From the IMG/VR virus record IMGVR_UViG_3300006310_000001: 64,000 nt of DNA; one strand, written 5' to 3'. Within the stretch, counting starts at the first letter, position 1. Every line of letters starts with the position of its first letter. Shown here in pieces: positions 8,323 through 64,000 of this stretch. The position numbers were made by a program, and so were the translations under genes. Source of the DNA: a virus. The notes beneath the pieces were generated by a model. That model did not search any database. It was not told the origin of the DNA and worked only from the letters and a program-made list of their open reading frames with translations.

Positions 8323-9537
8323 TTATTTCCATCCTTTTGGCAACGTAAAGTTTGCCCTACTAAATTCTAATCTATCTACTATTTTTACTGCACCTGCTAC
8401 TCTATCTACTGCAACATATCCTTCAGGTGCTGTTACTCTATATCCTGTTCCAGTTTTAATGTAGTGTCCTATCTGTTGAATTTGATTCATCTTTTGTATC
8501 AATGTGTTCTTCGCATTACCTAAAGTTACGTGACTTGCAATTGCCATATATAGACCTGATTTATTTTGATTAATAAATCTTAATCCATCTGCTAATATAT
8601 CTCTATATTTTTGTTTTGCTTTTTCAGTTTTTCTTTGGTCTATTTCTGTCTTCAAAATGTTTTCATAATAATCTCTAAACATATCTTGCAAGACTCTAAC
8701 CTTTGCCATACTGCCTTTATTATTTCTAATGTAATGATTGAAAAATGCTTTTAATCTAAACCCTACAGATAAAGGGTCACTAGCACGACTAGTCATTTCA
8801 TCTAATATCTTACTTGCTCTACCTAAAGAACCTTCTGCCATTCTTAATTGAGCATCAAATTTTCCTAGTTCTGATTTAGTAAAAGTAATAGAACCAGAGT
8901 CATCCTTATATTCAGCACTCGCAACCCATACTCTTGCATTACCTGACCCTCTAACATTACCAAAACTTGCATTTAAACTTTTCATATCTTTACCAGTATA
9001 CATTGTATGAAATACTATACCCATTTTAGCACGAGCAATCTTCTTACCAATATTGCTACTTGCCTGTACTGCATATGTGATTGTATTTGGTGTAAAGGTT
9101 ATCATTTTTTCACCATCAATTGAAGCTGATTTTTTATCGTTAGTGAATAATAAATCACCTTGTAAAATTTGTTTAATGTTTAGACTAGATAAATGATTAA
9201 GACATACTGATAGTTTTTGAGCAACAGGACCAGAATGGTTCCGTCTTATGTCTGCTGTTGTGTAATTGATTTTAGGGGTTACGTTGAATATTGATTTTGT
9301 ACCAACAAAGAATTTACCGTTTTCAGGATTGACCCCACATATAATAGCAGGTGCCCCATCCCATTTAACAGTAGTATTGATTTTTGCTCCCGAGTGACCT
9401 GCGAGCATATCTCTTACTGATTTTAGAAAGTTAATTGCGTTAACTCCACCAGATGAACCTCTATTGATTATATCATCTTCTAGGTGTTCTAGGTGTGTGT
9501 TCTTATCGTTTGTTGTAAAACCTTTAAAACTAAACAT
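8323..9537 (-). CDS. conserved myovirus protein with ligase-like KxDG motif (DUF6267-like)
   Basis: KNTHLEHLED, TVKWDGAP, PEGYV and VKIVDR motifs. Confidence 0.6.
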   Translation of the reverse strand: MFSFKGFTTNDKNTHLEHLEDDIINRGSSGGVNAINFLKSVRDMLAGHSGAKINTTVKWDGAPAIICGVNPENGKFFVGTKSIFNVTPKINYTTADIRRNHSGPVAQKLSVCLNHLSSLNIKQILQGDLLFTNDKKSASIDGEKMITFTPNTITYAVQASSNIGKKIARAKMGIVFHTMYTGKDMKSLNASFGNVRGSGNARVWVASAEYKDDSGSITFTKSELGKFDAQLRMAEGSLGRASKILDEMTSRASDPLSVGFRLKAFFNHYIRNNKGSMAKVRVLQDMFRDYYENILKTEIDQRKTEKAKQKYRDILADGLRFINQNKSGLYMAIASHVTLGNAKNTLIQKMNQIQQIGHYIKTGTGYRVTAPEGYVAVDRVAGAVKIVDRLEFSRANFTLPKGWK

Positions 9538-21279: not shown

Positions 21280-23765
21280 CCTAAAAACGCTTCCAGACTT
21301 GCTTTCTTTTCGTGTTCCCAACCTATTGAGTTTAATATAAATCTCATAGGGTCTAGGAAAGTTTTCTCAAATTGTACTTCATAATCAATATACTCTTGTA
21401 GATTAAACTCTTTTGGTAGTTTAGTTATATAACTAATCACATCAAACTTAAATGGATTTGCTTGTAGTAATTTAATAAACTTAATCTTATCTCCTTCTTG
21501 TATATAAGGATACTTATTCTGCAATCCAAATTCTTTTATTTGATGATTATAAATCAAAGAACCTTTAACGTGTATTGGTGTACCTTTGATAAACACATCT
21601 TTACTACTAGCATATTTTCTCATATTATTACAAGACCTTGGAAATGATATCTGCTCAGCAGACATACTCATAAATTCTTTTTTGAAACCTGCAATGAAAG
21701 TATGTAAATCAGATTGTTCTTTTGACATAATTATTTTAATTGCTTCTTTAATCTTACCTCGGCATACTTGTGGAGTTGAAGATTTAATTGCCTCTACACC
21801 CATAATCTTTAGTTTAGGTTCAGACAATCTTACATCTTCCTCATCTAATACATTTAACATATATCTTTTTTTCGCAACCCATATACCTTTGTTCGCAATA
21901 ACTTCACGTGCCATAACCATTGCGTTCTTAAATGCGTTTGTATAGTCTGCAATGTCTTCAAATTGTTTTGCGATAAACGGTTCTAATTTATTATCACATA
22001 CCTTAGCAAGAAAATCACATACTTGTTGGTCTGTTTTATCTTTACAAGTCTTCTCTACAAGTTTATCAAACGATACATAAATTGAATCTGTATCAGACGC
22101 TAGTACATAATCTATTTCATTATGTGTTTGTAATATTTGATTTAGATATTCATTTACTTTTTGTTCTACAAATCTAATAATGAATTGTCCTGCTGTAGTT
22201 ACAGCACTTGCTTGTGCTATATCATAATATCTAAAGTACTGATTACCTATTGCACCATAACAACTGTTTAATGCAATCTTTCTTGCCCATTGTACATTAT
22301 GACATCTAGCAATTTCTTTTTTTAATTCGTTTGTTGGATTCTTTTGATATTCTCTTTGTGCTTTTAACTCACGTTTCTTATATATCACACGGTCTTTATA
22401 AATCTTTTCAATCATTTCAGGTAAGAACCCTTGACTATCTCTTTTAAACATTGCACCGTTAGGTGTTATACAAGCACCTTCAGTTTTTAAATAATCTAGG
22501 GGTGTCTTCTTACTCAACATTTTATTCACAGAAACACCAGATGGTTTAACACCTAATATTTTTTCGGGAGAAATATTATATTGTACAATAATATGTGGAT
22601 AAAGAGAGTTGATATCAAAAGACACCACCCATTTTTGCATACCTAATCTAGGTTCTTTCACATACGCACCTTCATATTTGGTGTCCTTTATGTGGTCTTC
22701 CCTAGGTGGTACACAAATCTTTTTTGTCATCAAGTGGTTTGCGATTAATGTATCCCAAACTCTCACCTGTGAGAAAATATCGTTATAGTTTACTTTAGTT
22801 TCATACGCAAAGGTTAAAGATAAATCAATTAACCCTAACTTGTCTTCTAAACCATCAACTATTTCTACGTCTTGAATATTATACTCTACGAATTTTTGAA
22901 AATCTTTTGTATAGAAATCTTTAAATGTTGGATATGGATTTTCTACTTTAGTTTCACCTAATTCAGTTTCACCTATAAAAGATAATCTATAACTCTCTTG
23001 TCTTACTGGTATAAACCATTTATATAAATCAAGATAATCTAACATTGCAATACCAAACAATGAATAATATGTATTAGGTCTACCTCTTATAATTATTTCT
23101 TCTTTATGTATTAAGTTCCAAGGCGACATTCTACTTGCAACTTTAGCACCTGCAACTAATTGAATTCTATTCATCAAGTATGGTAGGTCAAAGAATTTAG
23201 TATTCCAACCTGTAATAACATCTGGATAGTTCTTCAACCAGAATTTCATAAACTCCATTATTAAATGTCTTTCATCTGTACATTTAATATAAGTTACGTC
23301 TGTACGTAAAGTTTTAAACTCACCAACACCCCACGTTATAATTTGTTTGTTTGATTGATTTTTAACTGTAATACATAATAGTTCTTCAACTGGAGTATTT
23401 ACTTCTGGAAATCCATTTTCACAGGTACATTCTATATCTAATGTAAATATTTTAATTAATTCTTTTGACCACTTAACTTGTTTTGTATACTTTTCATTGA
23501 TGTATTGATAATGAAATCTATCAAGTCCATAGACTGGTGCATTTTTAGTAGCGACATCACGTTTAAATCTACGAGCAGCGTCAATAGATGAAAAAGTAAT
23601 AGGTCTTAAATTATGTCCTTGTAATGATTTAAATTCTTCTTGATGTTGTGATACTGAATATAATGTTGGAGAAAAATTAATCCTCTCTTTAAACTCTTTG
23701 CTATCTCTTACACCTCTAACAAGTAGTTTGCCTTTATGTTCTATTACATTTTTATAAAAGTTCAT
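21276..23765 (-). CDS. 43: family B DNA polymerase gp43
   Basis: DIEC exonuclease, SFDINSLYP, KIALNSCYG and SDTDS. Confidence 0.97.
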   Translation of the reverse strand: MNFYKNVIEHKGKLLVRGVRDSKEFKERINFSPTLYSVSQHQEEFKSLQGHNLRPITFSSIDAARRFKRDVATKNAPVYGLDRFHYQYINEKYTKQVKWSKELIKIFTLDIECTCENGFPEVNTPVEELLCITVKNQSNKQIITWGVGEFKTLRTDVTYIKCTDERHLIMEFMKFWLKNYPDVITGWNTKFFDLPYLMNRIQLVAGAKVASRMSPWNLIHKEEIIIRGRPNTYYSLFGIAMLDYLDLYKWFIPVRQESYRLSFIGETELGETKVENPYPTFKDFYTKDFQKFVEYNIQDVEIVDGLEDKLGLIDLSLTFAYETKVNYNDIFSQVRVWDTLIANHLMTKKICVPPREDHIKDTKYEGAYVKEPRLGMQKWVVSFDINSLYPHIIVQYNISPEKILGVKPSGVSVNKMLSKKTPLDYLKTEGACITPNGAMFKRDSQGFLPEMIEKIYKDRVIYKKRELKAQREYQKNPTNELKKEIARCHNVQWARKIALNSCYGAIGNQYFRYYDIAQASAVTTAGQFIIRFVEQKVNEYLNQILQTHNEIDYVLASDTDSIYVSFDKLVEKTCKDKTDQQVCDFLAKVCDNKLEPFIAKQFEDIADYTNAFKNAMVMAREVIANKGIWVAKKRYMLNVLDEEDVRLSEPKLKIMGVEAIKSSTPQVCRGKIKEAIKIIMSKEQSDLHTFIAGFKKEFMSMSAEQISFPRSCNNMRKYASSKDVFIKGTPIHVKGSLIYNHQIKEFGLQNKYPYIQEGDKIKFIKLLQANPFKFDVISYITKLPKEFNLQEYIDYEVQFEKTFLDPMRFILNSIGWEHEKKASLEAFLG

Positions 23766-24090
23766 CTGGTCTCAAATGGAGAATTAAACCGTCAAGGTCT
23801 TTAGTAAGTTTTATTTGACAACTTAATCTACTAACACCTGGTTTATATCCTCTTTCATATTCTAATTGTTCTTCTTCTATTGATAAGTCTTCTGGTTGTG
23901 GTACTTTGTCTATCCACTTCTCATCAACATATACGTGGCACGTACAACACATACAATTACCACCACAATCGGCAGGAATTTCTGGTATTGGTACGTGTGA
24001 TTCAAATTTCGCTGCCTCCATTGCACTCAAACCTTCTTTAGTCTGAACACGAATCTTGGATCCGTCCCTTACAAAATATACATCTATCAC
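23752..24090 (-). CDS. fdx: [2Fe-2S] ferredoxin, adrenodoxin/ISC-Fdx type
   Basis: CGGNCMCCTCHVYV...SRLSCQI. Confidence 0.9.
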   Translation of the reverse strand: MIDVYFVRDGSKIRVQTKEGLSAMEAAKFESHVPIPEIPADCGGNCMCCTCHVYVDEKWIDKVPQPEDLSIEEEQLEYERGYKPGVSRLSCQIKLTKDLDGLILHLRPDELL

Positions 24091-24441: not shown

Positions 24442-24470
24442 AATATATCATAGAATTAAAAATTAGTCAA
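24442..24470 (-). promoter_or_regulatory. sigma70-type promoter
   Basis: TTGACT-N17-TATATT with TG extension, preceded by AACTAACA. Confidence 0.65.
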
Positions 24471-24780
24471 TGTTAGTTCTAGGTATGAACGGTGAATAAC
24501 CTCGTTCTTCTGCTTTTTGGTCGTCTTCTCCTACAATGGCTTGGACTTCAGGAACATAATGCTTAAGCATATCTTCCACACCTTGATGTAATGTTTGTTT
24601 AGACATTGCACATCCTGAACAACTACCTGCTAGTTCTAATTTTGCAACACCTAAATCCATATCAAAGTCTAAATAATTTATAAACCCACCGTGCTGAGCC
24701 ACAGCAGGAGCAACTTTATCTTCCAAGATAAATTTAATGTCCTTTGCTATCTCTTCTTTACTTCTGGTTATTTCAACCAT
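24463..24780 (-). CDS. NifU/NfuA C-terminal-type Fe-S cluster carrier
   Basis: VAPAVAQHGG and GSCSGC (CxxC)...TL..GVE. Confidence 0.9.
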   Translation of the reverse strand: MVEITRSKEEIAKDIKFILEDKVAPAVAQHGGFINYLDFDMDLGVAKLELAGSCSGCAMSKQTLHQGVEDMLKHYVPEVQAIVGEDDQKAEERGYSPFIPRTNID

Positions 24781-24793
24781 TGTAGTCCCTTCT

Positions 24794-24997
24794 TTATTGT
24801 CTTTGTAAATTTACTGCTGAATTACCTTTTTGTGTTTCAGTAATTTCAAAAGTTAGTTCATCGCCTTCATTAAGTTCCAGGTTTGCTGCTTTAGCCGCTG
24901 AGGAATGTACAAAAACATCCTTCTCATTGTCTTCTCTAGCAATAAAACCATAACCTTTTGTTGGGTTAAACCATTTTACTTTTCCGTTTATACTCAT
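24794..24997 (-). CDS. cold-shock (CspA-family) RNA chaperone
   Basis: GKVKWFN, KGYGFI (RNP1) and DVFVH (RNP2); start at MSING. Confidence 0.95.
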
Positions 24998-24998
24998 C

Positions 24999-26411
24999 TT
25001 ATTTTTTATCTTCTCCTTTCTTGTCATCTAAACTATACTTTGTAGTTATTATATATTTACGATTCGGATTAACCATTACGTTAAAACGATTCATTGTTTC
25101 TCTATCAAATAATATTTTAGATTTTTCATCCCTATCATCTAGGGTAAATTCTACTTCTTTGTAATATCCACCTGCAAATTCTACATCAAGTTTTATTACT
25201 AATCTTTCTTCTTTATAATCTCTTAATCCGCCTACTTCAATTGTTTGCTTACGCACTATATCGTTTGTAAGTGTCTTGCCTTCTAATGACCAAGTAACTT
25301 TACCACCGCCTTTTTTTATTTTATCAGCGTGTATAACAGACGTACCAGAGTTACCTGTATCAAACTTACCTACTATACGTCCAAATGGATGTATATGGAC
25401 AACTTCTTTATATCCACACTCGGTAGGTACTTTCTTCCAGTTATCTCTATCTTCAAAATATTGTACTATTTCTTTACTTAAATTTCTATGTGTTGCCTCT
25501 TCTATACCTTCTGTACCTGGTGAAGAGTTAACTTCAATAACAAATGGTGATTCTTTTACTCTATCTTCCGAAGGAATAAAGTCTACTGCTACCCATTGAC
25601 CATCTACTGCCTTCGCCGCTTTTAAACTTTCTTCTGTTTCTATTTTTGTTAGTGTTAATTCTTCTACTTCTGCACCTCTTGATACATTACTTCTGAAATC
25701 TCCTGGTACAACTTTTCTTTTCATAGCAGCAAATACTTTACCTTGCAATACTAATACTCTAGCATCCCATTTAGTTTTTATATATTGTTGCAATAGTATA
25801 TCAGAATCTTCATCTTGTTTATTAAGTAATTGTACTATTGAATCTAATGATTTTTCTGATTCAATAAACAAGACACCAACACCTTTTGAACCTCTTAATG
25901 TCTTTAAGATAACAGGAAACTTTTCTTCCAAACTTTCAAATGATTGTATTGAATTTTCTGGATCAGTTACCAATACTGATTTAGGTTGTTTAATACCATA
26001 GTCTGCTAATCTTAATGAAGTTCTATATTTGTCAGCACACATACTAATACATTGTCTACTGTTAATTACACACACTTGGTGTTTTTCTAATCTTGATACC
26101 AAGTCCATCCAACTATCTCTACGTACTACTGAACCTCTTACAATAGCAACTGTATCTTTTGCTGATACTCTAAATCCTTTTTTGTCATCTTGATTATGGA
26201 AATACATTTCTCCATCATCTTCAACGGTTACATACCCACCAGTATTTCTATAGATGTATGACTTATGACCAAGCTTATCTGCTTGTTTCATTAAGTTCTT
26301 TGCTGTATGGAAATTTAAATCATCTTCAGGTTCATCTGATATAATGATTAATCTATATGATCCAGAAGTTTTTGCTTCTGTTATGTAATCTTTGAATTTT
26401 GGTATCTGCAT
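24999..26411 (-). CDS. rimK: RimK-family ATP-grasp ligase fused to a C-terminal retropepsin-like (RimB-like) protease
   Basis: [36 protein letters not shown] and EVNSSPG; C-terminal KFDTGNSG. Confidence 0.8.
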
Positions 26412-31649: not shown

Positions 31650-31853
31650 CTATAATCTATTCTGTATCAATTTCAACTTCTTTTTCCAGTTCTTGATACC
31701 TTCTTTTTTCTTTTCTCTTTTAATTTCTGATGGTTTTCTATAGTACTGCTTTAATCTATAGTCTTTTAGTATACCTGCTTTAAGTACTTTCTTCTTAAGC
31801 ACTCTCATAGCTTTCTCTACATTACCGTGTCTTACTTCAACTGTTATTGCCAC
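31650..31853 (-). CDS. rpsU: ribosomal protein bS21
   Basis: V.VR.GNVEKAMRVLKKK...GILKDYR.KQYY.KPSE.KR. Confidence 0.92.
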   Translation of the reverse strand: MAITVEVRHGNVEKAMRVLKKKVLKAGILKDYRLKQYYRKPSEIKREKKKEGIKNWKKKLKLIQNRL

Positions 31854-40448: not shown

Positions 40449-41503
40449 TGATTTACCTCACTATATAGTTCTTTAGTATAATCTTTCAATTTACTTTTGT
40501 CAAGGTCTGTATCAAGTTGGTCTATATACTTGCCCAAAAATGTAAGTGTATCTTCACCTTGTTCTATTAAATCTTCTTTTACACTAGCAGTTACATCACT
40601 AGTATCCTCAAATATATTTAGTTCGTGTATATTTAATGTACTATACAACCTATTGATAAACTTATCATACATATCTTCATCTGTTTTTTGAGATATAAAC
40701 AGTTTAATATAACTGTTATCAAATCTTGATATGTTTAACGTATTATAATCGTGTTGTGTATCATCATACACTATCTTTTTAAAGATTCTTATTGGGTTAG
40801 GTATTCTAGTTAACTCTCTAGTGTCTGTATCAAATATATGAAACCCTTTAGGGTCTTTATAATCGTTCCAAGTAATTTCATATTGTGTACCTAAATAATA
40901 TATCCGACCATCATCTGATTTCTTATGAAAGTGTCCTGATATAACTTTTTCAAATCTATGAAACATTGATTTATCTAACCCTTGTTCGTTCATAAATCCT
41001 CTATTCATTTCAAACCCTTTAATTTCTAAATGCCCCATACATATTTCCGCATTTGAATTTTCAATAGCATATAAAGAATCTTCATACGTATCATCACATA
41101 TCCAAGGCATAAACAAAATCTTTAAACCATCTAGGGTTACTTCTTTTGGTTTTGCATATATCCAAGGTTCATTTTGACCATCATAAGTTGTACATAATTC
41201 AGTAATTGCATTTACATTATTTGTATTCTTATAATAAGTATCGTGATTACCTAATATAATATGTGTATCTACTTTTTCTTTCCAAAGTCTTTTCATAAAC
41301 TTTTGGCGAAAGAAATTAGCCGTCTTATAGTTTATAAATTTACGTCTATCAACTACGTCACCTAAATGTACTAACGTTGTGATGTTGTGTTCTTTTATAT
41401 ATGGAAAAAACACTTCATTATAAAACCGTTCTTGATACTGTACAAAATGAGGACTATCATTCCGACAACCAAAGTGTGTATCGTTTAGTAGGGCAATCTT
41501 CAC
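40445..41503 (-). CDS. 47: recombination endonuclease gp47 (SbcD/Mre11-like)
   Basis: DTHFG, GDVVD, GNHD and SGHFH. Confidence 0.96.
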   Translation of the reverse strand: MKIALLNDTHFGCRNDSPHFVQYQERFYNEVFFPYIKEHNITTLVHLGDVVDRRKFINYKTANFFRQKFMKRLWKEKVDTHIILGNHDTYYKNTNNVNAITELCTTYDGQNEPWIYAKPKEVTLDGLKILFMPWICDDTYEDSLYAIENSNAEICMGHLEIKGFEMNRGFMNEQGLDKSMFHRFEKVISGHFHKKSDDGRIYYLGTQYEITWNDYKDPKGFHIFDTDTRELTRIPNPIRIFKKIVYDDTQHDYNTLNISRFDNSYIKLFISQKTDEDMYDKFINRLYSTLNIHELNIFEDTSDVTASVKEDLIEQGEDTLTFLGKYIDQLDTDLDKSKLKDYTKELYSEVNQ

Positions 41504-43056
41504 TTGTAATAATTCTCCAATAGAAAGTGGTAATAACTTGGAAACTTTTCAACTTCCTTTTTCCATTTTTCTTTACGTTCATCTAGTTTCTTTATGTATG
41601 GTTTCATAAATTCTTTTATATATTTCTCACTCTTATGTGTTAGATTTATCATATTAGGTAAATCAGTTGGTGCCCAATTGAAACCAGCCGCTATATAATG
41701 TAATCCATATTTACCTGGCGTAAGAGCAGGATCAACAGGAAACTCCGAATTAAGATTTCTTTGTAAAGCAGCTTGTAAATATCCAAGCATAATTTTAGGT
41801 TTAAAATTAGATAAACTTTCTTCCCATACTGTTTCGTTATTTGCTTTCCAATATGGTGTATCATTTCTTGTTGATAATGCATAATGCAACCCAACAAATT
41901 CAGCAAATCCATAATAGATAGATTTACAAGAAAATGTGAAGTTGTCTTTATCCCATTGTGTAATTTCACCTCTTCTTAAATTTCTTACCAACATCATTAA
42001 AAATTCGTGTACTGAAAACAAACCATTACTTTCTAATGGTTCAATAAATCCAGCAGATAGTCCTATAGCAACAACATTTTTTACAAATAATCTTTCGTGT
42101 GTACCAGTTCTCATTTTAATATTTCTAAATTCGTGTTCTTCATTACCAAACCCAGGTCGTACACCTGCTAAATGATTTTTAAATTCTTTTAAAGCAGTTT
42201 CATCATCTACAAATTTATCTGAATAAACATAACCTGTACCAACTCTACTCCACAATGGTATATTCCATACCCAACCGTTCTCTATTGCTGTGCAATTGGT
42301 AAACGCTTCTATTTCTTTTTCTTTATCAACATAAGGAATCTTTGTTACCCACGCTTTATTATTTGGTAGATTTTGTAAAGGTTCAAAAGATTCTTTTAAT
42401 GCACCACCTAAAAGCATTGATTTAAAACCTGTACAATCAACATATAAATCTGCTGTATGTTTGTTTAAAGAAACAATACCATTTTCATCTTGTTTAATAT
42501 CTTTTATATCTTCTTGAATATATTTGACACCTCTAGGGATACAATAATTAACCTTCAACCATATACCAAATTTAATTGCGTCAAACTGATAAGCAGAATC
42601 ACGGTCAACTTTAAAATCGTAAAAATTATAAGTACCCTTACGTTGATTAATTAATGCCATATTAGGAGCAAAACTATCAGCATAATCTGAAACAGGTGTT
42701 TCTGGATTAAATGCCTTTTTCATCCACCAATCATTATAATTTAATTTAGTTCCTTGTATGTCAACTGAACCAAAAGGATAGTGAAATGCCGCCTCATCTT
42801 TTCCATTAAAGTCTGTAAACTTAATACTAAATTTAAGAGTGCCATCTGTTTCTGCTAAAAATTCTTTATCATTAATGTCTAAAAATTTTGTCCATTGTCT
42901 AATTTTTTGTATTGTACTTTCACCAACTGATATTGTTGGAACGTTAGGTGATTCTATTACTGTTATATCTTTGTTGGGAAATGCTCTAACTAAAGTAGCA
43001 GCCGTCATCCAGCCAGCAGAACCTCCACCCACTATCAAAATCTTATCACACTTCAT
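41500..43056 (-). CDS. flavin-dependent tryptophan halogenase-like protein (PrnA family)
   Basis: VGGGSAGW, VGES, DCTGF, WVWNIP and FIEPLES. Confidence 0.88.
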   Translation of the reverse strand: MKCDKILIVGGGSAGWMTAATLVRAFPNKDITVIESPNVPTISVGESTIQKIRQWTKFLDINDKEFLAETDGTLKFSIKFTDFNGKDEAAFHYPFGSVDIQGTKLNYNDWWMKKAFNPETPVSDYADSFAPNMALINQRKGTYNFYDFKVDRDSAYQFDAIKFGIWLKVNYCIPRGVKYIQEDIKDIKQDENGIVSLNKHTADLYVDCTGFKSMLLGGALKESFEPLQNLPNNKAWVTKIPYVDKEKEIEAFTNCTAIENGWVWNIPLWSRVGTGYVYSDKFVDDETALKEFKNHLAGVRPGFGNEEHEFRNIKMRTGTHERLFVKNVVAIGLSAGFIEPLESNGLFSVHEFLMMLVRNLRRGEITQWDKDNFTFSCKSIYYGFAEFVGLHYALSTRNDTPYWKANNETVWEESLSNFKPKIMLGYLQAALQRNLNSEFPVDPALTPGKYGLHYIAAGFNWAPTDLPNMINLTHKSEKYIKEFMKPYIKKLDERKEKWKKEVEKFPSYYHFLLENYYK

Positions 43057-56223: not shown

Positions 56224-57858
56224 TTAGAGCCCTTTTCTGACAACTGGATACCAGACTGTTCCATATTCATCTACTTCTGTTTTCTCCCAATCAGGAGTAC
56301 CATCATCTACAAAACCAAAAGGAGCCATATCTTGCTCTATTAATTTTTCTTGTTCTTCATATAATTGTTGTCTAGCATTTGTATTAGTCATTTCTTTAAA
56401 GTAAGGTTGATTAGACAACCAACCAAATAATACAAGACAAGTCATTAAATCATCATTACATCCTTCTTCCGCTTGCCAAGAATTTCCTTTACGAGCATAA
56501 GTTGACATTTCTTCTATGATATTGAAGTCATTAATAATAACTTTATCTCCTTCAATCAATGTCTTAATGTTAGAACAACCAACTTTTTTAATCTGTTTTG
56601 TCATACGAACACCAAAACCAGAACCTCTTCCACTATATCCTGCACCCAATATCTGACCTGCTCTACCTCTTTGAGTAGTCATTAATAGATTAGGATATTC
56701 TAATTCATAGTTTAATGATTCACCTATTTGTTGACCTATATCATTTGTTTCACAAAGAATATCTGCCGTGTTATAACCCTTACACGCTTTTTGTATTAAG
56801 TGTGGAAATAGAATTGGTTTAACTTCATTACTTCTATATTTGGCAACAACTCTATAAGGCATTTGAGTAACATCAAACATTAAAAATGCTGAATAATCTC
56901 TATCTACACCTCTCGCTACATCAACACAACAAACATAATTTCTACCATTTACAACCTTTTCAAATACATCTAAACCACCACTTGAAGTTAATGGTGTCAT
57001 ATAAGGTGTTTGTTTAATCTTAACTGGTGAAATTAATGTATCTACTGATCCTAAAAATTCACACTCAAATTCTTGTTGAAATTGTGCTGCTGATGTATTA
57101 CGTATAGTTGTTTCTTTCCATTTTTCATCTCTACCTGGAACTTCTGACCAATGTACTTCAATAGGTTTATAATCATTTCTTCCATTTTCAGCGTCTGTCC
57201 ATAATTTATAAAATTGATTCATTCCGTGAGGTGTTGATACGATAATAACTTTTGAAGTTTTACCAGATGTAATAGTAGGATAAACTGAACTAAAAAACAT
57301 TTCTGCTATATTAGCAGGTACGAAAGCAAACTCATCAAGAAATATTATATTATATGTTCCTCCTCGTATTGCACTTGAAGATGTAGCAGCAGCAATAATA
57401 GTAGATTTATTTTCTAATTCTATATTACCTTTGTTCCAATTAATAACTCCTTGTTGCAACCATTTAGGCAAATTTTCATATGCCAATTGTAATCTTCCTA
57501 ATATATCTCTAGCAGTAGAAGATTTATTAGCAAGAATTGCTATGTTTGAATTTGGATTAAATATTGCATAGTGTAAAAGATATGCAATTGTTGTAGTTGA
57601 TTTACCTGATTGTCTAGGCAATTTGCAAATAGTAAATCTTTCTTTATCTATTGTAGTTACAATCTTCTTTTGGAAATCATATAGTTTAAAAGATATAAGT
57701 CCTTCATCAAGAGAAACGATTTTCATCCATTTCTCCATAAAATATATTGGATCTGTTTTACATTTCTGAAATTCTACAATTTGGTCTTCAGTAAATTCAA
57801 CTGGTATATTTACTTTTTTTAAATTAGGATTTCCTAAATATGCGTCTGTTACTGGCAT
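56224..57858 (-). CDS. 17: terminase large subunit gp17
   Basis: YLGNPNLK, PRQSGKST, LDEFAF, STPHG and DDLM; start at MPVT after the late promoter. Confidence 0.96.
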   Translation of the reverse strand: MPVTDAYLGNPNLKKVNIPVEFTEDQIVEFQKCKTDPIYFMEKWMKIVSLDEGLISFKLYDFQKKIVTTIDKERFTICKLPRQSGKSTTTIAYLLHYAIFNPNSNIAILANKSSTARDILGRLQLAYENLPKWLQQGVINWNKGNIELENKSTIIAAATSSSAIRGGTYNIIFLDEFAFVPANIAEMFFSSVYPTITSGKTSKVIIVSTPHGMNQFYKLWTDAENGRNDYKPIEVHWSEVPGRDEKWKETTIRNTSAAQFQQEFECEFLGSVDTLISPVKIKQTPYMTPLTSSGGLDVFEKVVNGRNYVCCVDVARGVDRDYSAFLMFDVTQMPYRVVAKYRSNEVKPILFPHLIQKACKGYNTADILCETNDIGQQIGESLNYELEYPNLLMTTQRGRAGQILGAGYSGRGSGFGVRMTKQIKKVGCSNIKTLIEGDKVIINDFNIIEEMSTYARKGNSWQAEEGCNDDLMTCLVLFGWLSNQPYFKEMTNTNARQQLYEEQEKLIEQDMAPFGFVDDGTPDWEKTEVDEYGTVWYPVVRKGL

Positions 57859-57863
57859 ATTAC

Positions 57864-57871
57864 TATTTATA
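57864..57871 (-). promoter_or_regulatory. late promoter TATAAATA for gp17
   Basis: Exact consensus. Confidence 0.75.
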
Positions 57872-58448
57872 ATTGATACCCAAACCAACCAGTTATGATA
57901 TATTTTTCGTGGGTCTTGGAAATTTGTCCGCTATGTGTATGTGTAAAGTCAGTCGGCCAAATCAAAGTCAAACCTTTTTCAGCAGGAGTTGTTGCATTTT
58001 GATATTTAAAATGTGTACCACCGTTAGGAACATCATTTAAATAAGTCATCCAAACAAGACAACGGTTTTCGTGCCTGGAAGTTCTTTCACAATGCTTAGT
58101 AAAATAACCTCCACCTGGTGGATAGTATTGTAAATTTCCTCCTTCAACCATTCCATATCTTTCAAACTCTTTAACTTCAGGATATTTCTCTTCGTATAGA
58201 CCAACACATTCTTTCAACGCATTTTTATATTTCATAAACCTTGGTTCTTCCCAATTTGGATCTAATCCAATATCTATAGAATCTTTTACTTCTTTATTAA
58301 TTTTTGAAGTGAAACCTACAACACCTGGTTTTTGTGCTTGTTTATTCTCTTTAAATAAATTTATAAGTCCATCACAAATACCAGAAGGAATATACCAACC
58401 TCCTATACAAGAAGTTGTTGGTATAATATATTCTCTATGTTTTGGCAT
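57867..58448 (-). CDS. 2OG-Fe(II) oxygenase (prolyl-hydroxylase-like)
   Basis: LQYYPPGGG, HCE, WMTYLND, WPTDFTHTH and KYIITGW. Confidence 0.85.
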   Translation of the reverse strand: MPKHREYIIPTTSCIGGWYIPSGICDGLINLFKENKQAQKPGVVGFTSKINKEVKDSIDIGLDPNWEEPRFMKYKNALKECVGLYEEKYPEVKEFERYGMVEGGNLQYYPPGGGYFTKHCERTSRHENRCLVWMTYLNDVPNGGTHFKYQNATTPAEKGLTLIWPTDFTHTHSGQISKTHEKYIITGWFGYQL

Positions 58449-59652
58449 TACTTTGTATTGCACTTTTACCTCCACATTTTTTCATAGCCGCTTTTAGTTT
58501 TACTACCATATCAAAGATTAATGCGTCTGTATGAAATGGTGTAGGAGTAAATCTTAATCTTTCAGTACCTACAGGAACAGTCGGCCAATTAATAGGTTGT
58601 ACATAGATACCTTCTTTATATAAAAGTTCATCTGATATTGCTTTAGCTCTTTTAGGGTCTCCAATAATTACAGGAACAATATGACTATCATTTTTCATAA
58701 CTTCTATACCTTGTCTAGCAAGTTCTAATTTAGTTTTATTTGCTCTTTCGTGTATTTGTTCTCTTAATTCAGGATGGTCTCTAACATATTTAATACTTGT
58801 TAAAGCACCAGCACAAATTACTGGACTTAAACTAGTTGTAAATATAAAAGCACTTGCCAAACTTCTTATGGCGTCAATAAAATCTTTTTTTCCTGCAATG
58901 TATCCACCTTGTACTCCAAATGCTTTTGCTAATGTTCCATTAATAATATCTACTTCTATATTATCTCTTTCAGTAATACCACCACCTGTTGCACCATATA
59001 AACCAACAGCGTGTACTTCATCTAAAAATGTTATTGCATTATATTTTTTAGCTAGTTCTACTATTTCTTTTACTGGTCCAATATCTCCGTCCATAGAATA
59101 TACACTTTCAAATACTACACATTTTGGACCTTCGTATGATTTTAAAATTCTTTCTAAATCTTCTACATCATTATGTTTAAATATTTCTTTCTTACATCTA
59201 CTATGCCTAATGCCTTGTATAAGAGAAGAGTGATTTAATGAGTCTGATATATACAATAAGTCAGGTATAATTTTTCCTAAAGTTTCTAAAGTTGTTTGAT
59301 TAGCATTATATGCTGAAGTAAATATTAATGCCTTTTCTTTTTTATGAAAATCTGCTAATTCGGTTTCTAAAGCATTATGGTAGTGAGTAGAACCAGATAT
59401 GTTTCTTGTACCTCCAGCACCTGCCCCACTTGATTCTAATGCTGTTTTCATTGAGTCTATAACATAAGAGTGTTGTCCCATACCTAAATAATCGTTAGAA
59501 CACCAATTGACTATTTTTTTAATTGAGTATTTTGAATACCAAATAGCGTGAGGAAAGTTTCCTCTAGTCCTAACTATATCATTAAAGACTCGGTATCTTC
59601 CATCTTCTTTATATTCATTTATTATTTTTGTAAATTCTTCTAAATGTTTCAC
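58435..59652 (-). CDS. hemA: 5-aminolevulinate synthase (Shemin/C4 pathway, PLP-dependent)
   Basis: RYRVF...RGNFP, WCSNDYLGMGQH, GAGGTRNISG, DEVHAVGLYG, GTLAKAFG (PLP Lys) and INWPTVP.GTERLR. Confidence 0.93.
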   Translation of the reverse strand: MKHLEEFTKIINEYKEDGRYRVFNDIVRTRGNFPHAIWYSKYSIKKIVNWCSNDYLGMGQHSYVIDSMKTALESSGAGAGGTRNISGSTHYHNALETELADFHKKEKALIFTSAYNANQTTLETLGKIIPDLLYISDSLNHSSLIQGIRHSRCKKEIFKHNDVEDLERILKSYEGPKCVVFESVYSMDGDIGPVKEIVELAKKYNAITFLDEVHAVGLYGATGGGITERDNIEVDIINGTLAKAFGVQGGYIAGKKDFIDAIRSLASAFIFTTSLSPVICAGALTSIKYVRDHPELREQIHERANKTKLELARQGIEVMKNDSHIVPVIIGDPKRAKAISDELLYKEGIYVQPINWPTVPVGTERLRFTPTPFHTDALIFDMVVKLKAAMKKCGGKSAIQSNAKT

Positions 59653-59939
59653 TTAACTATAACTCCTTCTATATGGGTATAACCTAATTGTATAGCAGCC
59701 TGCACTCGTTGACTACCTTTCCACACACTATATTCTTTTTCTATATATGGTATACCCATAGGACCATATCTAGGTACTTCGGATACAATGTGTTCTTTTA
59801 CTTCTATTGGATAATTTAGTGATTCACCATCTAATAATTCTTTTAATGGTGTCATTGACTTAATATAAATTAAGTCTTTTAGTACGATAGGAATTTTATT
59901 CGCTATCTTTTGATTTGCCGTCAATAGTTTCATTTTCAA
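59649..59939 (-). CDS. small ParB/Srx-like domain protein
   Basis: VWKGSQRVQAAIQLGYTHI resembles the ParB GxxRxxA...LG motif. Confidence 0.5.
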   Translation of the reverse strand: MKMKLLTANQKIANKIPIVLKDLIYIKSMTPLKELLDGESLNYPIEVKEHIVSEVPRYGPMGIPYIEKEYSVWKGSQRVQAAIQLGYTHIEGVIVK

Positions 59940-60402
59940 TTCTCTTTTCTTTTTTAGTTTCCATACTTTGTTTATTCAACATCTTTTGTAATTCTGCTGT
60001 TGAACCTACAAATAAAGCATTTTTTATATTTGCGTTTGTTCTGCCAGGTAATTCTTTTAAGTCTTTAAATTTCTTTTGTAGGTCTTGTAATTTATCAACT
60101 GTAGTACCAACTTGTCCTATCAATTGCCCAACAACTTCATATGCTCTAGGGTGTTGTCCTTCTTTTGCAATATCTAATATGCCTTGTATTGCTTCTTGTC
60201 CTTTTTCTATTATACTGTAATAACTTTCTCTACTGTAATCATAGTCAGTATTAATATCCTTTTCAACTTTTAAAGGAACTTCTCCATTCTTTCTAGGAAC
60301 AGGTGGTTTAAAACCTTTTTGTGGTTCAAGGTTCTCTGGAACAACTTTATTTGTTCCTTCTAATCCCAATATTTCATTTACACTATCTTCCAATTTAGCC
60401 AT
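59896..60402 (-). CDS. 16: terminase small subunit gp16
   Basis: DYDYSR, HPRAYEV and NALFVGSTAELQK. Confidence 0.9.
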   Translation of the reverse strand: MAKLEDSVNEILGLEGTNKVVPENLEPQKGFKPPVPRKNGEVPLKVEKDINTDYDYSRESYYSIIEKGQEAIQGILDIAKEGQHPRAYEVVGQLIGQVGTTVDKLQDLQKKFKDLKELPGRTNANIKNALFVGSTAELQKMLNKQSMETKKEKRIENETIDGKSKDSE

Positions 60403-61205
60403 TATTCATCTTCTCCTGTTACTGGATTATATTTCTTTGTATCATCATAGAAACTAATCTTTGTTGTAAATCCAAAATCATCATCTGCATTAGCACTTTC
60501 AGGATTTGGTATTACTATAATTCTTTCTTCTCTTGATAAAGGAGCATCCGTAGATGTTCCTAAATCTGCTTGTGATTTTCTAATAACTTTACTTTGTGCC
60601 ATAGGTCCATATAAGTAAGTTTTAGCAGTAAACGCTAAAGTATATATAACAGCTCTTCGCTTATTAAAATCACCATCATAAGTATCTTCATAACTTACAT
60701 CATCTAAAACAATAGGTACGTCCCTTTTAATATTTAATTCTGGTATTGCATTAATAGTTACTGTATAATCTGGTGCAAAGTATGGTAATATTTGTTCAAT
60801 TATCTGTAGTCCATTTTCTGCTGTAGCAGTAAAAGAATAAAGATTAAATTGTATATCATAGGGTACAGGTGAATAATTAAAATTATGTATAGTAGAATCA
60901 GAAGTTTTAACTCTAACTGTTTTTTGAAGTTTGTTTAGTTTTCTAGTAGCGTCATACTTTAAACCTTTTAATTCAAATCCCATTCTAGGTAAAACAATTG
61001 CAAAAGTTCTACCTTTCTGCAAATTTGATTGTTGGTCTATTCTGGCTATAAACTTTTCTTTAGGAGCGTATGCTAAAGGCACACGTATTCTTTTAGTAAC
61101 AGCACCTGTACTAGATTTTTGTTGAACGATTATATTATTAAAAATTTGTCCAAATGCAATAGTTAGTCTTCTTAAACTTTGATTATAAAAATGTGTTCCG
61201 AACAT
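60402..61205 (-). CDS. 15: tail sheath stabilizer/completion gp15
   Basis: VPLAYAPKEK, LPRMGFE and QIIEQILPYF. Confidence 0.93.
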   Translation of the reverse strand: MFGTHFYNQSLRRLTIAFGQIFNNIIVQQKSSTGAVTKRIRVPLAYAPKEKFIARIDQQSNLQKGRTFAIVLPRMGFELKGLKYDATRKLNKLQKTVRVKTSDSTIHNFNYSPVPYDIQFNLYSFTATAENGLQIIEQILPYFAPDYTVTINAIPELNIKRDVPIVLDDVSYEDTYDGDFNKRRAVIYTLAFTAKTYLYGPMAQSKVIRKSQADLGTSTDAPLSREERIIVIPNPESANADDDFGFTTKISFYDDTKKYNPVTGEDE

Positions 61206-61210
61206 ATAGT

Positions 61211-62044
61211 CTACTCGTCAATTTCCCCGAATGGATTTCTTTCTGTAAAGTCAAGTATATCATCCGCTGTTGAAACAGTATCATATCCTGCTTCTTTATT
61301 CAAGTCTAAATTATCTGCATATGGAGATTGTGTCTGTATATTAGACTCTGTAAAATCTTCGTTCATTAAAAGTGCTGGTTGACCAGTTGAATAATCGTGA
61401 TAACTTTCTAATTGTACTGAACCTGCACCTGTCATAACTTCTTGTCCATATTCTAAAGTAAACTTATATGCTAATTGGTCTAGTGTATGTGTATCTTCGT
61501 GTGAGTCAATAGTAGATAAACCAGTATCAAGTTTTTCACTTGAATATTCCCAACGAGTTACTTTTAATTTATAAACTGGCAGATTGCCTAATTGGAAAAA
61601 TGGTTCTTGGTCTTCTACAAATAAAATTTCAAAAAAAGATTTCATCAAAGGCACATATATAATATCACCTTCGTTTGGTCTTCCTGTAACTGATAAAGAA
61701 GAACCAACCTGTGTTGCCTTATTACCAACTAAATTTGTCCAACTTCTTTTTGAAACCATTAATGATGTATCATCACGAATTTCTAATCCAAACTTACTTA
61801 TGATTTCTTGTTCACCAGCAAATCCTGTATTATTTTCAAAATACATTTCTATCAAATAAGAATCATCAAATCTACTAGATACATCTTCTCCTAGTATTAA
61901 ATCTTTATTGACTAATGTTCGTGGTAAGTAGTAGACATCCTGACCGTAAATTTTAAGACCTTCAACTATTATATCTTCGTGTAGTCTTTGTTCGGCAGCA
62001 TTACCTATGCCTTTTCCACCTTGAAAGTAATGATTAACTGGCAT
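61211..62044 (-). CDS. 14: neck protein gp14
   Basis: YGQDVYYLPR, SKFGL and RPNEGDIIY. Confidence 0.93.
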   Translation of the reverse strand: MPVNHYFQGGKGIGNAAEQRLHEDIIVEGLKIYGQDVYYLPRTLVNKDLILGEDVSSRFDDSYLIEMYFENNTGFAGEQEIISKFGLEIRDDTSLMVSKRSWTNLVGNKATQVGSSLSVTGRPNEGDIIYVPLMKSFFEILFVEDQEPFFQLGNLPVYKLKVTRWEYSSEKLDTGLSTIDSHEDTHTLDQLAYKFTLEYGQEVMTGAGSVQLESYHDYSTGQPALLMNEDFTESNIQTQSPYADNLDLNKEAGYDTVSTADDILDFTERNPFGEIDE

Positions 62045-62048
62045 AGCA

Positions 62049-62870
62049 TTATCCTATCATAAAAGGTTGCGGTTCTTCAAACTCGCTTCTTAATTTTATT
62101 TCCAATTTATCCAAATCTTCTAGTGCTTCACTATAAATTTGTTTACCGTTTAATGTAACTCCACCAAGCATTGCAACACCATCAAACTTACTTAAATTGG
62201 CTCCCCATTGTTTTTTAAATAAAGCAGTTACGTATCTTTTTAACCAAATATCATTAAAGACATCTGTATATGTGTTAGGGTCTAATTTTCTCCAGCATTC
62301 TATTACAAGAAATTCATCTACTTGTAAATCATTTTTCCAATCCATATCAACATAAAGTCTATTATCTAATTGGTTAAATCTATAAGGTTTTTCTCCGACT
62401 AATATATGGTCTAAAAAATCTAAATGTCTTAATACAACATCATAGTTAATAACAGACGTTGAAGAAAAATCATATAGGTCATTTAATCTTAATTGATATC
62501 TAACATCAAATAAATTTAAATTACCTTTATTTGAAAATGGAAAAATGTTAATTACAGATATAACAGATTCAGGACATACAATATACTGATTGCCTTCTTT
62601 CCATTCTGTATTTACTACAGAAGAATCACCATATGTTTTAGATTCAGTTTCAGTACTATCTGCTAAAATTCTAGCTTTATCTGCCGCTGTATACTTGTAT
62701 TTTAAATAGGTTCTTTTAACACCATCATAGTGGTATTGAGCAAAATATTGTAATGCTTCATCAAGTCTATCTTCCAGTTGGTCGTCATCAACGTTGATTT
62801 CAATTACTGGTTTACCTAATGCTCTTAAAGCGTATTGTTTTACTGTTTCTCTGGATGCTGGTTCTGCCAT
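62049..62870 (-). CDS. 13: neck protein gp13
   Basis: LRALGKPVIEINVDDDQ and QWGANLSKF...GGVTLNG. Confidence 0.94.
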   Translation of the reverse strand: MAEPASRETVKQYALRALGKPVIEINVDDDQLEDRLDEALQYFAQYHYDGVKRTYLKYKYTAADKARILADSTETESKTYGDSSVVNTEWKEGNQYIVCPESVISVINIFPFSNKGNLNLFDVRYQLRLNDLYDFSSTSVINYDVVLRHLDFLDHILVGEKPYRFNQLDNRLYVDMDWKNDLQVDEFLVIECWRKLDPNTYTDVFNDIWLKRYVTALFKKQWGANLSKFDGVAMLGGVTLNGKQIYSEALEDLDKLEIKLRSEFEEPQPFMIG

Positions 62871-62888
62871 ACTGGTTCCTTTATTGTA

Positions 62889-62896
62889 TATTTATA
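62889..62896 (-). promoter_or_regulatory. late promoter TATAAATA for gp13
   Basis: Exact consensus. Confidence 0.75.
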
Positions 62897-62903
62897 ATAA
62901 CAA

Positions 62904-63581
62904 TTATATCTTCGGAAACAAATTATCAGTACAGAATAGTTTTATATCATCTTCAGGCAGTCCAAGAGTTTTCATTACTCTAGGGGTGTGTGGATTTTGT
63001 TGTTGGTGTTCGCAATAGAAGTTTTGCGCTCTTATTACATCTTCTTCCTTTGAATCGCTATTATAATGACCAATTTTGTCAAGATAATTTTCTAAATTAG
63101 ACGTAGCTAGAGTACATATTTGGTTTAATTCTTTTTCTTCTGTTACTCTACCAGCAGCAATCATACCAGGACTAAAGATAGCCTTTGCCCAATCAGGCAA
63201 TTCTCTTTCTTTAGATGGTTTAAACCATTTATTCTCTTCTATAAAATACTTTGTTAAGGGATGGTCTTTTAATAATAGTGGACTAAAATCGTGAAAGACA
63301 CCTGTTATCTTTTTCTTACCTGCAATAACATCAAATCCATAAATTGGACCACCATTTGTTAAATTTGGAAATAAACATATATGTGCCATCCAAAGACCTT
63401 TTGTTTCTCTGGCGTCCACTACGTCTACGTGAGCACGTCTTACACTCATATTAGACCAAGTACGGTTGGTCCAAGTATCATTATTAAATCTATCCATACC
63501 CTCTTCGTTGTATTCTTTACAACGTCTATCAAGTATAGCGATTATTTCTTTTTCTAATTTAATTAGTCGTTCCCAAATCAT
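62904..63581 (-). CDS. pcyX: ferredoxin-dependent bilin reductase, PcyX-type
   Basis: FDBR motifs FP...PIYGFDVIAG, FHDFSP, LPDWA.IFS and Q.QNPHT; His67/Asp84 spacing matches PcyA His88/Asp105; adjacent to heme oxygenase. Confidence 0.85.
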   Translation of the reverse strand: MIWERLIKLEKEIIAILDRRCKEYNEEGMDRFNNDTWTNRTWSNMSVRRAHVDVVDARETKGLWMAHICLFPNLTNGGPIYGFDVIAGKKKITGVFHDFSPLLLKDHPLTKYFIEENKWFKPSKERELPDWAKAIFSPGMIAAGRVTEEKELNQICTLATSNLENYLDKIGHYNSDSKEEDVIRAQNFYCEHQQQNPHTPRVMKTLGLPEDDIKLFCTDNLFPKI

Positions 63582-64000
63582 CTTTAACCTCGTTAGTTAA
63601 AATTAAAGGTTTTGAATAATCCATATCGTTCATTTCTTTGAACAATTGTGTAGCAGTTGCAAAACAAAATTTAACTTCATTTAGAATATTAAGTTTATAA
63701 ACATTTAAATAACTGTTTATCATTTCTCTTACTATTCGTTTATACTCTTTTATTTCTTTATGTTTAAACTTGTAATAACGATTAGGTCCTGGTGTTCTTT
63801 TCATTATCATTTGACCACCAGATACATCTCCTAAATGTCTAGTATAGATATGACCGTATAATTTTTCTGCGTCTTCTTTGATTGTTTCAATATGAGCAAC
63901 ATAATCTTTAGTACTTTGAGTTACTGTTGGAAGGTCTTCACTTGTCCATAATGCTTTAAAATCATAATGTAAATGTTCTGCTCTAGGTAAATTAGGAGTT
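63559..64000 (-). CDS. hemO: heme oxygenase (C-terminal part; 5' end outside the window)
   Basis: The frame is open from the window edge: LPRAEHL..D...HIYTRHLGDVSGGQ...EVKFCF. The ORF track shows only the last 83 aa. Confidence 0.9.
   Translation of the reverse strand, partial: TPNLPRAEHLHYDFKALWTSEDLPTVTQSTKDYVAHIETIKEDAEKLYGHIYTRHLGDVSGGQMIMKRTPGPNRYYKFKHKEIKEYKRIVREMINSYLNVYKLNILNEVKFCFATATQLFKEMNDMDYSKPLILTNEVKDDLGTTN

Follow-up and report, generated by a model that had tools for sequence, protein, structure and literature searches.

Wegner et al. (2024, Nat Commun 15:8783; PMC11480375) have described viral genes for 5-aminolevulinic acid (ALA) synthase (ALAS, encoded by alaS, or valaS in viruses) in pelagimyophage-like contigs, including a "broken cassette" in which the heme oxygenase gene hemO and the ferredoxin-dependent bilin reductase (FDBR) gene pcyX stand together with valaS nearby. 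The marine contigs were assigned to pelagimyophages through gp13 phylogeny and similarity to phage Mosig. The viral ALAS sequences were apart from the bacterial ones, with conserved catalytic residues and the loss of one or both heme-feedback residues, and the vAlaS of the freshwater phage CB_2 was enzymatically active. The co-occurrence of valaS with hemO and FDBR was termed "still enigmatic", and an iron-supply role was discussed for hemO. In that paper, ferredoxin appears only inside enzyme names, NifU, ferrochelatase, hemB and coproporphyrinogen are not mentioned, and hemB, hemC and hemF are left undiscussed. In an earlier study, Zaragoza-Solas et al. (2020; PMC7029224) reported four enzymes found only in the "deep ecotype" PMP-MAVG-4, namely coproporphyrinogen oxidase, porphobilinogen deaminase, formate dehydrogenase and GMP reductase, with no mention of ALA synthase, bilin or ferredoxin. 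Here, we analyzed a viral stretch of 64,000 nucleotides (IMG/VR virus record IMGVR_UViG_3300006310_000001, called the window below), which carries alaS, hemO and pcyX together with a [2Fe-2S] ferredoxin gene and a gene for an Nfu-type iron-sulfur (Fe-S) carrier. With a probability of about 85%, we read it as part of a T4-like pelagimyophage, nearest to the isolate Mosig, that contains the published broken cassette with an alaS moving as a single gene, and whose ferredoxin and Nfu are not a dedicated electron donor set.

All the genes of the window lie on the minus strand. The hemO gene (63559..63999) is truncated by the window edge and retains the codons for the C-terminal 146 of 206 residues; the remaining four of the five module genes are intact. 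The start of pcyX (62904..63581, 225 residues) overlaps the hemO stop by 23 nt, and the pair stands just ahead of gp13, 3.25 kb upstream of alaS (58435..59652, 405 residues). The neck and tail-completion genes gp13, gp14 and gp15 (60402-62870, recognized by synteny with Mosig), the small terminase gene terS (59896-60402, PF11053) and orf96 (59649..59939), a conserved open reading frame (ORF) of 96 codons, lie in between. The gp13-gp15 and terS block (59896..62870), which separates hemO-pcyX from alaS, is 61-79% identical to Mosig_00049-00052, and orf96, for which a Pfam search gave no match, is 60% identical to Mosig_00048. The GTG start codon of alaS and the TGA stop of orf96 overlap, with AAGGAG about 10 nt upstream. 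Its 3' end is overlapped by a 2-oxoglutarate (2OG)-Fe(II) oxygenase gene (57867..58475; PF13640, 36.1 bits; no Mosig match), whose end, 57867, is the coordinate at which the preliminary description of this DNA began the module without mentioning the gene. The large terminase gene terL (56224..57888), whose product shares 78% identity with the large terminase of Mosig, forms the downstream flank of the alaS/2OG insertion. Since the same gene order was found again in independent IMG/VR contigs, it is not an assembly artefact. The window thus shows the arrangement of the broken cassette, with adjacent hemO and FDBR genes and a non-contiguous valaS on the same pelagimyophage-like contig. The coupling of ALAS to hemO-pcyX, which the preliminary description had considered possibly undescribed, was therefore already published by Wegner et al. 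with the same layout, and this genome is one more confirmation of it.

The three enzymes belong to their predicted families and keep their active sites, in agreement with the earlier identification of an intact ALAS with a heme oxygenase and an FDBR within 4 kb. The HemO frame running off the right edge matches PF01126 (41.4 bits) and contains the distal-helix motif GDVSGGQ, an instance of the canonical GDxSGGQ. The full protein of 206 residues is readable in a related contig (L002:5480-6100), where its C-terminal 146 residues are identical to the window HemO; its H12, which falls outside the window, aligns with the proximal His of human HO-2 and HO-1, so that the residue to be sought in the N-terminus is present in this relative. 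The FDBR matches PF05996 (62 bits) and, over its full length, the crystallized PcyX_EBK42635 (PDB 5OWG, 391.8 bits), a phycoerythrobilin-forming FDBR from marine viral metagenomes; its D53, H67 and D84 align with D55, H69 and D86 of that enzyme, the first of which is specific to PcyX. The assignment as PcyX is thereby borne out, and the gene is 74% identical to that of Mosig. Judged by this near-identity to the characterized enzyme, the product would be phycoerythrobilin and not phycocyanobilin.

The window ALAS scores 566.6 bits with the TIGR01821 model (cut-off 338.55), while the sister models all stay below their own cut-offs (bioF, 331.4 against 426.45; KBL, 320.4 against 460; all the serine palmitoyltransferase models). 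Ten residues (R21, N53, T82, H141, S186, D211, H214, T240, K243 and R367) show no variation among 12 viral and 88 cellular ALAS, and correspond to R21, N54, T83, H142, S189, D214, H217, T245, K248 and R374 of the R. capsulatus enzyme, which include the pyridoxal phosphate (PLP) lysine and substrate-binding residues. In an IQ-TREE phylogeny of 100 rows with a KBL-like outgroup (34% identical), the window sequence falls among the ALAS and far from this outgroup, so that the clustering with KBL or BioF that would have argued against its identity is not seen. All viral ALAS form one clade (SH-aLRT support of 100) nested among alphaproteobacterial ALAS, and this clade includes the 61%-identical ALAS of a locus with an unrelated-looking phage context (L039). 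Its closest cellular neighbours in the tree are a Litorimonas enzyme and the G038 enzyme (59-60% identical), whose 90%-identity cluster holds a protein named "SAR116 cluster bacterium". The ALAS of low-GC genomes of 0.8-1.4 Mb, possibly SAR11, are 51-53% identical and lie elsewhere in the tree. We tentatively propose from these positions that alaS would not be a recent capture from a SAR11 host. A class-level search counted 221 genomes as matching; one of them (G243) is unpublished and enters into none of the other results. Among phage records in GenBank, we found no close ALAS: the best matches were 38% identical and KBL- or BioF-like, and at least two of them lie in Salmonella genome records filed within the phage collection. 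As a separate observation, the ALAS of a Leptospira interrogans assembly (L120, JBNOAI010000007.1) is nested among Hyphomicrobium sequences and lies in a stretch of 62% GC; this contig is probably a contaminant in that assembly.

To see where alaS resides in related phages, we compared 27 IMG/VR loci whose ALAS is 78-99% identical to that of the window, and four layouts were distinguished. Ten loci have the window layout (L002-L006, L008, L011, L012, L027 and L028). A contiguous cassette, hemO-pcyX-alaS-gp13, is found in L013-L021 and L023-L026, and also in L031-L038. In L007, L009 and L010, alaS lies between uvsY and uvsW. The fourth site is that of L022 (10001-11690), where alaS comes after the baseplate genes gp48, gp53 and gp5 and is directly followed by an IscA-like carrier gene (PF01521). 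The gene is also common outside this set: the best 120 ALAS matches in a large protein collection are all at least 80% identical, the two variants sampled for context (P0029 and P0048, in eight places) belong to contiguous cassettes of phage contigs, and P0029 is listed in 658 blocks of an assembly index.

The divergence of alaS was then set against that of its neighbours by the number of synonymous substitutions per synonymous site (dS). Between the window and L009, dS is 0.088 for ALAS, against 1.14 for UvsY, 2.29 for UvsW and 1.81 for gp55. The comparison with L015, of the cassette type, gives 0.58 for ALAS and 0.99-1.62 for the neighbours, and that with L011, of the window type, gives 0.09 for ALAS, 0.12 for pcyX and 0.31-0.69 for structural genes. 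As the dS of ALAS is far below that of flanking genes and the gene occupies four sites, we conclude that alaS passes between divergent pelagimyophage backbones as a cassette of one gene. The ratio dN/dS for ALAS is about 0.17 with L015 and ranges from about 0.17 to 0.35 over the comparisons, and alaS is therefore under purifying selection. Nucleotide homology between the window and L009 is limited to window positions 59661-58413, which means the gene with 9 nt upstream and 22 nt downstream. The 22 nt that follow the alaS stop in the copies at the uvsY/uvsW site (L009:2060-2130) equal the 5' end of the 2OG frame of the window (58413-58435), and this match suggests that the L009 copy may derive from a donor with alaS at the terL site, the 22 nt being a remnant of it. 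In the tree, alaS copies of the cassette type diverge earliest and those of the window type make up a derived subclade, and the contiguous arrangement may therefore be the older one. An obligatory two-gene unit of alaS and the 2OG gene was considered and rejected: L133, L147, L160, L164 and L166 have a 2OG homologue between terS and terL with no alaS, and no orf96 either. The space between terS and terL is therefore an accessory-gene hot spot. Nothing on alaS can be read from the nearest virus record (G001), which does not include the terL region.

Co-occurrence was assessed at loci that include terL and extend 2.1 kb or more upstream of gp13. The PcyX gene is present in 19/19 assessable loci with ALAS, and an independent sample anchored on gp13 gave 18 assessable loci, of which 8 have PcyX (1 with alaS) and 10 lack it (0 with alaS); the loci are related, and the counts are not those of independent events. 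Among the assessable loci, alaS thus settled only in hemO/pcyX-positive genomes, which agrees with the published picture.

Several points weigh against the broken-cassette reading or restrict it. The loci with ALAS came from an ALAS search, and many are near-identical or related, so that the co-occurrence counts are not independent. The ALA-forming activity of the window enzyme is predicted from its sequence, and the vAlaS that was assayed belongs to a different, freshwater phage. Escape from heme inhibition appears weakly grounded as a feature of ALAS in this lineage. The feedback pair is incomplete in the window, where R335 aligns with His342 of R. capsulatus and C393 with Cys400; the first column is R or K in 12/12 viral ALAS and the second is Cys in 10/12. 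The claim is weak because the His342 position is seldom His in cellular ALAS (10/88) and because C393 is kept. A bilin has no evident use in a host that lacks phycobilisomes; no Pfam-recognizable bilin-binding domain was seen in the approximately 30 of about 78 window ORFs that were scanned, a scan not aimed at GAF or phytochrome domains. Finally, the T4-type late-promoter-like motif TATAAATA has no copy directly before alaS, and the only nearby copy (62889..62896, minus strand, from a motif scan) lies between pcyX and gp13. In the window, 14/14 copies of this motif are on the coding (minus) strand, most of them in short gaps just upstream of structural genes; this placement is consistent with a function as T4-type late promoters, although in total number the copies do not exceed chance. 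As the motif precedes gp13 and not alaS itself, alaS is probably read in a late transcript running from gp13 to terL, and we infer for hemO-pcyX a promoter that lies outside the window. A sigma-70 promoter scan was at chance (42 found, 42.3 expected) and uninformative.

By their strong family membership, the three enzymes are expected to act as follows. A viral ALAS, catalytically complete as judged by its residues, is inserted between the small-terminase side and terL; HemO would open heme to biliverdin IXalpha, iron and CO; and PcyX would reduce biliverdin to phycoerythrobilin. That the phage pushes flux in at the first step and drains it at the last is a step that we infer. The ferredoxin and Nfu would most simply serve as helpers of Fe-S cluster biogenesis or repair.

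The two Fe-S proteins announced in the preliminary description are both present, the ferredoxin at 23752..24090 (minus strand; PF00111, 35.9 bits) and the Nfu at 24463..24780 (minus strand; PF01106, 73.4 bits, with a CSGC motif). The latter is a stand-alone Nfu domain (the C-terminal domain of NifU) of 105 residues, which gives 50.5 bits with the NFU1/HIRIP5 domain 1VEH and aligns with the NfuA model over positions 104-189 alone; it is not a full NfuA, which has an N-terminal A-type domain. Nfu was found in the window, in its near relative G001 and in the ALAS-positive records G304 and G306 (60% identity); Mosig, HTVC008M, Melnitz and G307-G311 gave no match. Counting records with useful coverage, it occurs in 3/3 with ALAS (window, G304 and G306) against 0/4 without (Mosig, HTVC008M, Melnitz and G307), in a small and partly related sample in which several records are fragments, so that absence is weak evidence. 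In G304 and G306, Nfu belongs to an island after gp5. That of G306, a phage with cassette-type alaS, encodes a thioredoxin-like protein, HemB, an IscA-like protein (PF01521), a 2OG oxygenase and Nfu (L131, G306:C1 1325-4639), and the alaS of L022 has a comparable position, after gp5 and right before the IscA-like gene. The G306 HemB is short (286 residues; PF00490, 143 bits); HemB was seen only there, and a search of G001 and G304-G306 detected neither HemC (PF01379) nor HemF (PF01218). A tblastn search of the window with the L022 IscA-like protein detected no such gene. The link between alaS and the Nfu/IscA-like carriers is thus suggestive, and it is not described in the two pelagimyophage papers cited above. 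As for the earlier proposal that Nfu is part of the module, the co-occurrence with alaS and the neighbouring positions in relatives give it some support from a small sample. In the window, the two genes are 34 kb apart.

These observations bear on a first alternative, an economy of iron cofactors, in which HemO mainly frees the iron of host heme, Nfu (in relatives together with IscA-like carriers) and the ferredoxin route it to Fe-S and Fe(II) enzymes that the phage needs, ALAS maintains respiratory heme, and the bilin is a by-product or an antioxidant. The distribution of Nfu, the IscA-like gene that follows alaS in L022 and the G306 island fit it, as do the presence of at least three 2OG-Fe(II) oxygenases in the window and the iron-supply role already discussed for hemO. 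However, the sample is of three records against four, the Nfu gene is far from alaS in the window, and heme synthesis uses up iron rather than saving it; we regard this explanation as unlikely. A stronger form, in which alaS-bearing pelagimyophages co-acquire the carriers as one iron-cofactor programme coupling heme synthesis, heme opening and Fe-S loading, seems unlikely to us. In such a programme, the carriers might sustain cluster-dependent steps, such as lipoyl synthase for the 2-oxoglutarate dehydrogenase that provides succinyl-CoA, or cluster-containing heme enzymes; alternatively, they might recycle the iron released by HemO.

The second alternative is a self-contained line in which ALAS feeds heme synthesis, HemO and PcyX carry the flux on to phycoerythrobilin, and the phage ferredoxin, loaded by Nfu, is their dedicated donor. 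The five genes are intact in one genome apart from the edge-cut hemO, Mosig has homologues of both PcyX and the ferredoxin whereas HTVC008M and Melnitz matched neither query, and G307 has both. The type of ferredoxin argues otherwise. The usual donor of FDBRs is a plant-type [2Fe-2S] ferredoxin, and the closest relatives of the phage protein are not PetF-like: its best PDB match is R. capsulatus FdVI (1E9M, 92 bits), followed by putidaredoxin, terpredoxin and adrenodoxin. The protein has the cluster motif CX5CX2C...C and scores 30.7 bits with TIGR02007 (fdx_isc), below the cut-off. Its gene lies 39 kb away, directly downstream of the DNA polymerase gene, at the position of Mosig_00003 (46% identical), and Mosig has no ALAS. 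Furthermore, the ferredoxin is present in the PcyX-negative G308 as well as in the PcyX-positive G307, and also in G309, which is probably negative too (no PcyX seen within the 907 bp available upstream of gp13), and it was not found in G304, a record with PcyX and ALAS that is 82% complete. Phage HemO and FDBR also failed to relieve vAlaS-driven porphyrin accumulation in E. coli (PMC11480375). We observed no association between the ferredoxin and the bilin module, and the proposal of a phage-supplied electron donor is unsupported. A general role in redox reactions or Fe-S biogenesis would be the simpler reading, although the protein may be able to reduce HemO or PcyX. The self-contained line is, in our judgement, quite unlikely. 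Lastly, the idea that the supposed ALAS belongs to another family of alpha-oxoamine synthases (KBL, BioF or serine palmitoyltransferase), or that misassembly joined a host gene to the phage, has a negligible probability and was rejected as effectively refuted: these enzymes share a fold and PLP chemistry, and the BioF and KBL models give 320-331 bits, but TIGR01821 alone passes its cut-off, the bacterial ALAS structures 2BWN and 7X98 score 427-432 bits against at most 226 for KBL and BioF structures, the gene lies within the ALAS tree, and the same synteny recurs in dozens of independent contigs with a phage-like GC content of 30-35%.

No bacterial group is more abundant in the ocean than SAR11, and phage genes that alter how it handles heme, iron and pigments could have large-scale effects on respiration and iron cycling. 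Beyond the broken-cassette reading, which confirms prior work, the additions made here are modest and consist of the hopping of alaS as a one-gene cassette among pelagimyophages and its co-occurrence with Fe-S carrier genes.

Other genes of the window were noted in passing. A cold-shock protein gene (24794-25027, minus strand; PF00313, 79 bits) accompanies Nfu in the insertion that separates the ferredoxin block from an ATP-grasp gene. A flavin-dependent tryptophan-halogenase-like gene (41500-43056, minus strand; PF04820, 330 bits), with no Mosig match, is common to the window and L009 with 84% identity and a dS of 0.23, far below that of the neighbours; it looks like another accessory gene that may have been exchanged recently. 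A small ORF (31650-31853, minus strand) is 62% identical to the Mosig "putative 30S ribosomal protein S21". The region 1-21300 gave no match to Mosig in a comparison that excluded Mosig 48-100 kb; it includes a 913-residue AAA_33 kinase fusion (5581-8322), DUF6267 (8323-9537), a DnaB-like helicase, a RecA/UvsX-like protein, two DNA methylases, an NAD-dependent epimerase and a GT28-like glycosyltransferase.

Compared with known phages, the window is closest to the isolate Pelagibacter phage Mosig EXVC030M (MT647606). The two are 77% identical in nucleotide sequence across the neck genes, terS and pcyX, their gp13 proteins are 79% identical, and protein-level synteny spans the DNA polymerase to hemO. 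Both share the order from sheath through terL, terS, gp15-gp13, pcyX and hemO, and both have the ferredoxin beside the DNA polymerase. Mosig differs in that it lacks alaS, carries no 2OG gene beside terL, and has nothing that matches the Nfu or cold-shock protein encoded next to the ferredoxin in the window. Relative to Mosig, alaS with the 2OG gene is thus an insertion between orf96 and terL, and Nfu with the cold-shock protein gene is an insertion next to the ferredoxin. Downstream of hemO, Mosig carries an annotated "putative ferrochelatase" and several 2OG oxygenases, whereas L002 has tail-fibre-like genes there.

The enzymes can likewise be set beside their described relatives. The window PcyX differs from PcyX_EBK42635 by a two-residue deletion near position 36. 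The closest cellular ALAS was given by Wegner et al. as that of Pelagibacteraceae, at about 55% identity, whereas among the enzymes sampled here it is SAR116-like at about 60%. The hemO-pcyA-alaS island of Bradyrhizobium sp. ORS278, with bphP, is the sole cellular case cited by these authors with all three gene types; it differs from the window in being cellular, in encoding PcyA, which forms phycocyanobilin, and in having an adjacent phytochrome as acceptor. The vAlaS that they tested enzymatically, from the freshwater phage CB_2, is not of the lineage of the window. Their broken cassette is the nearest described system, and it shares with the window a T4-like phage background, a gp13 that groups with those of pelagimyophages, an adjacent hemO-pcyX pair and a valaS located nearby.

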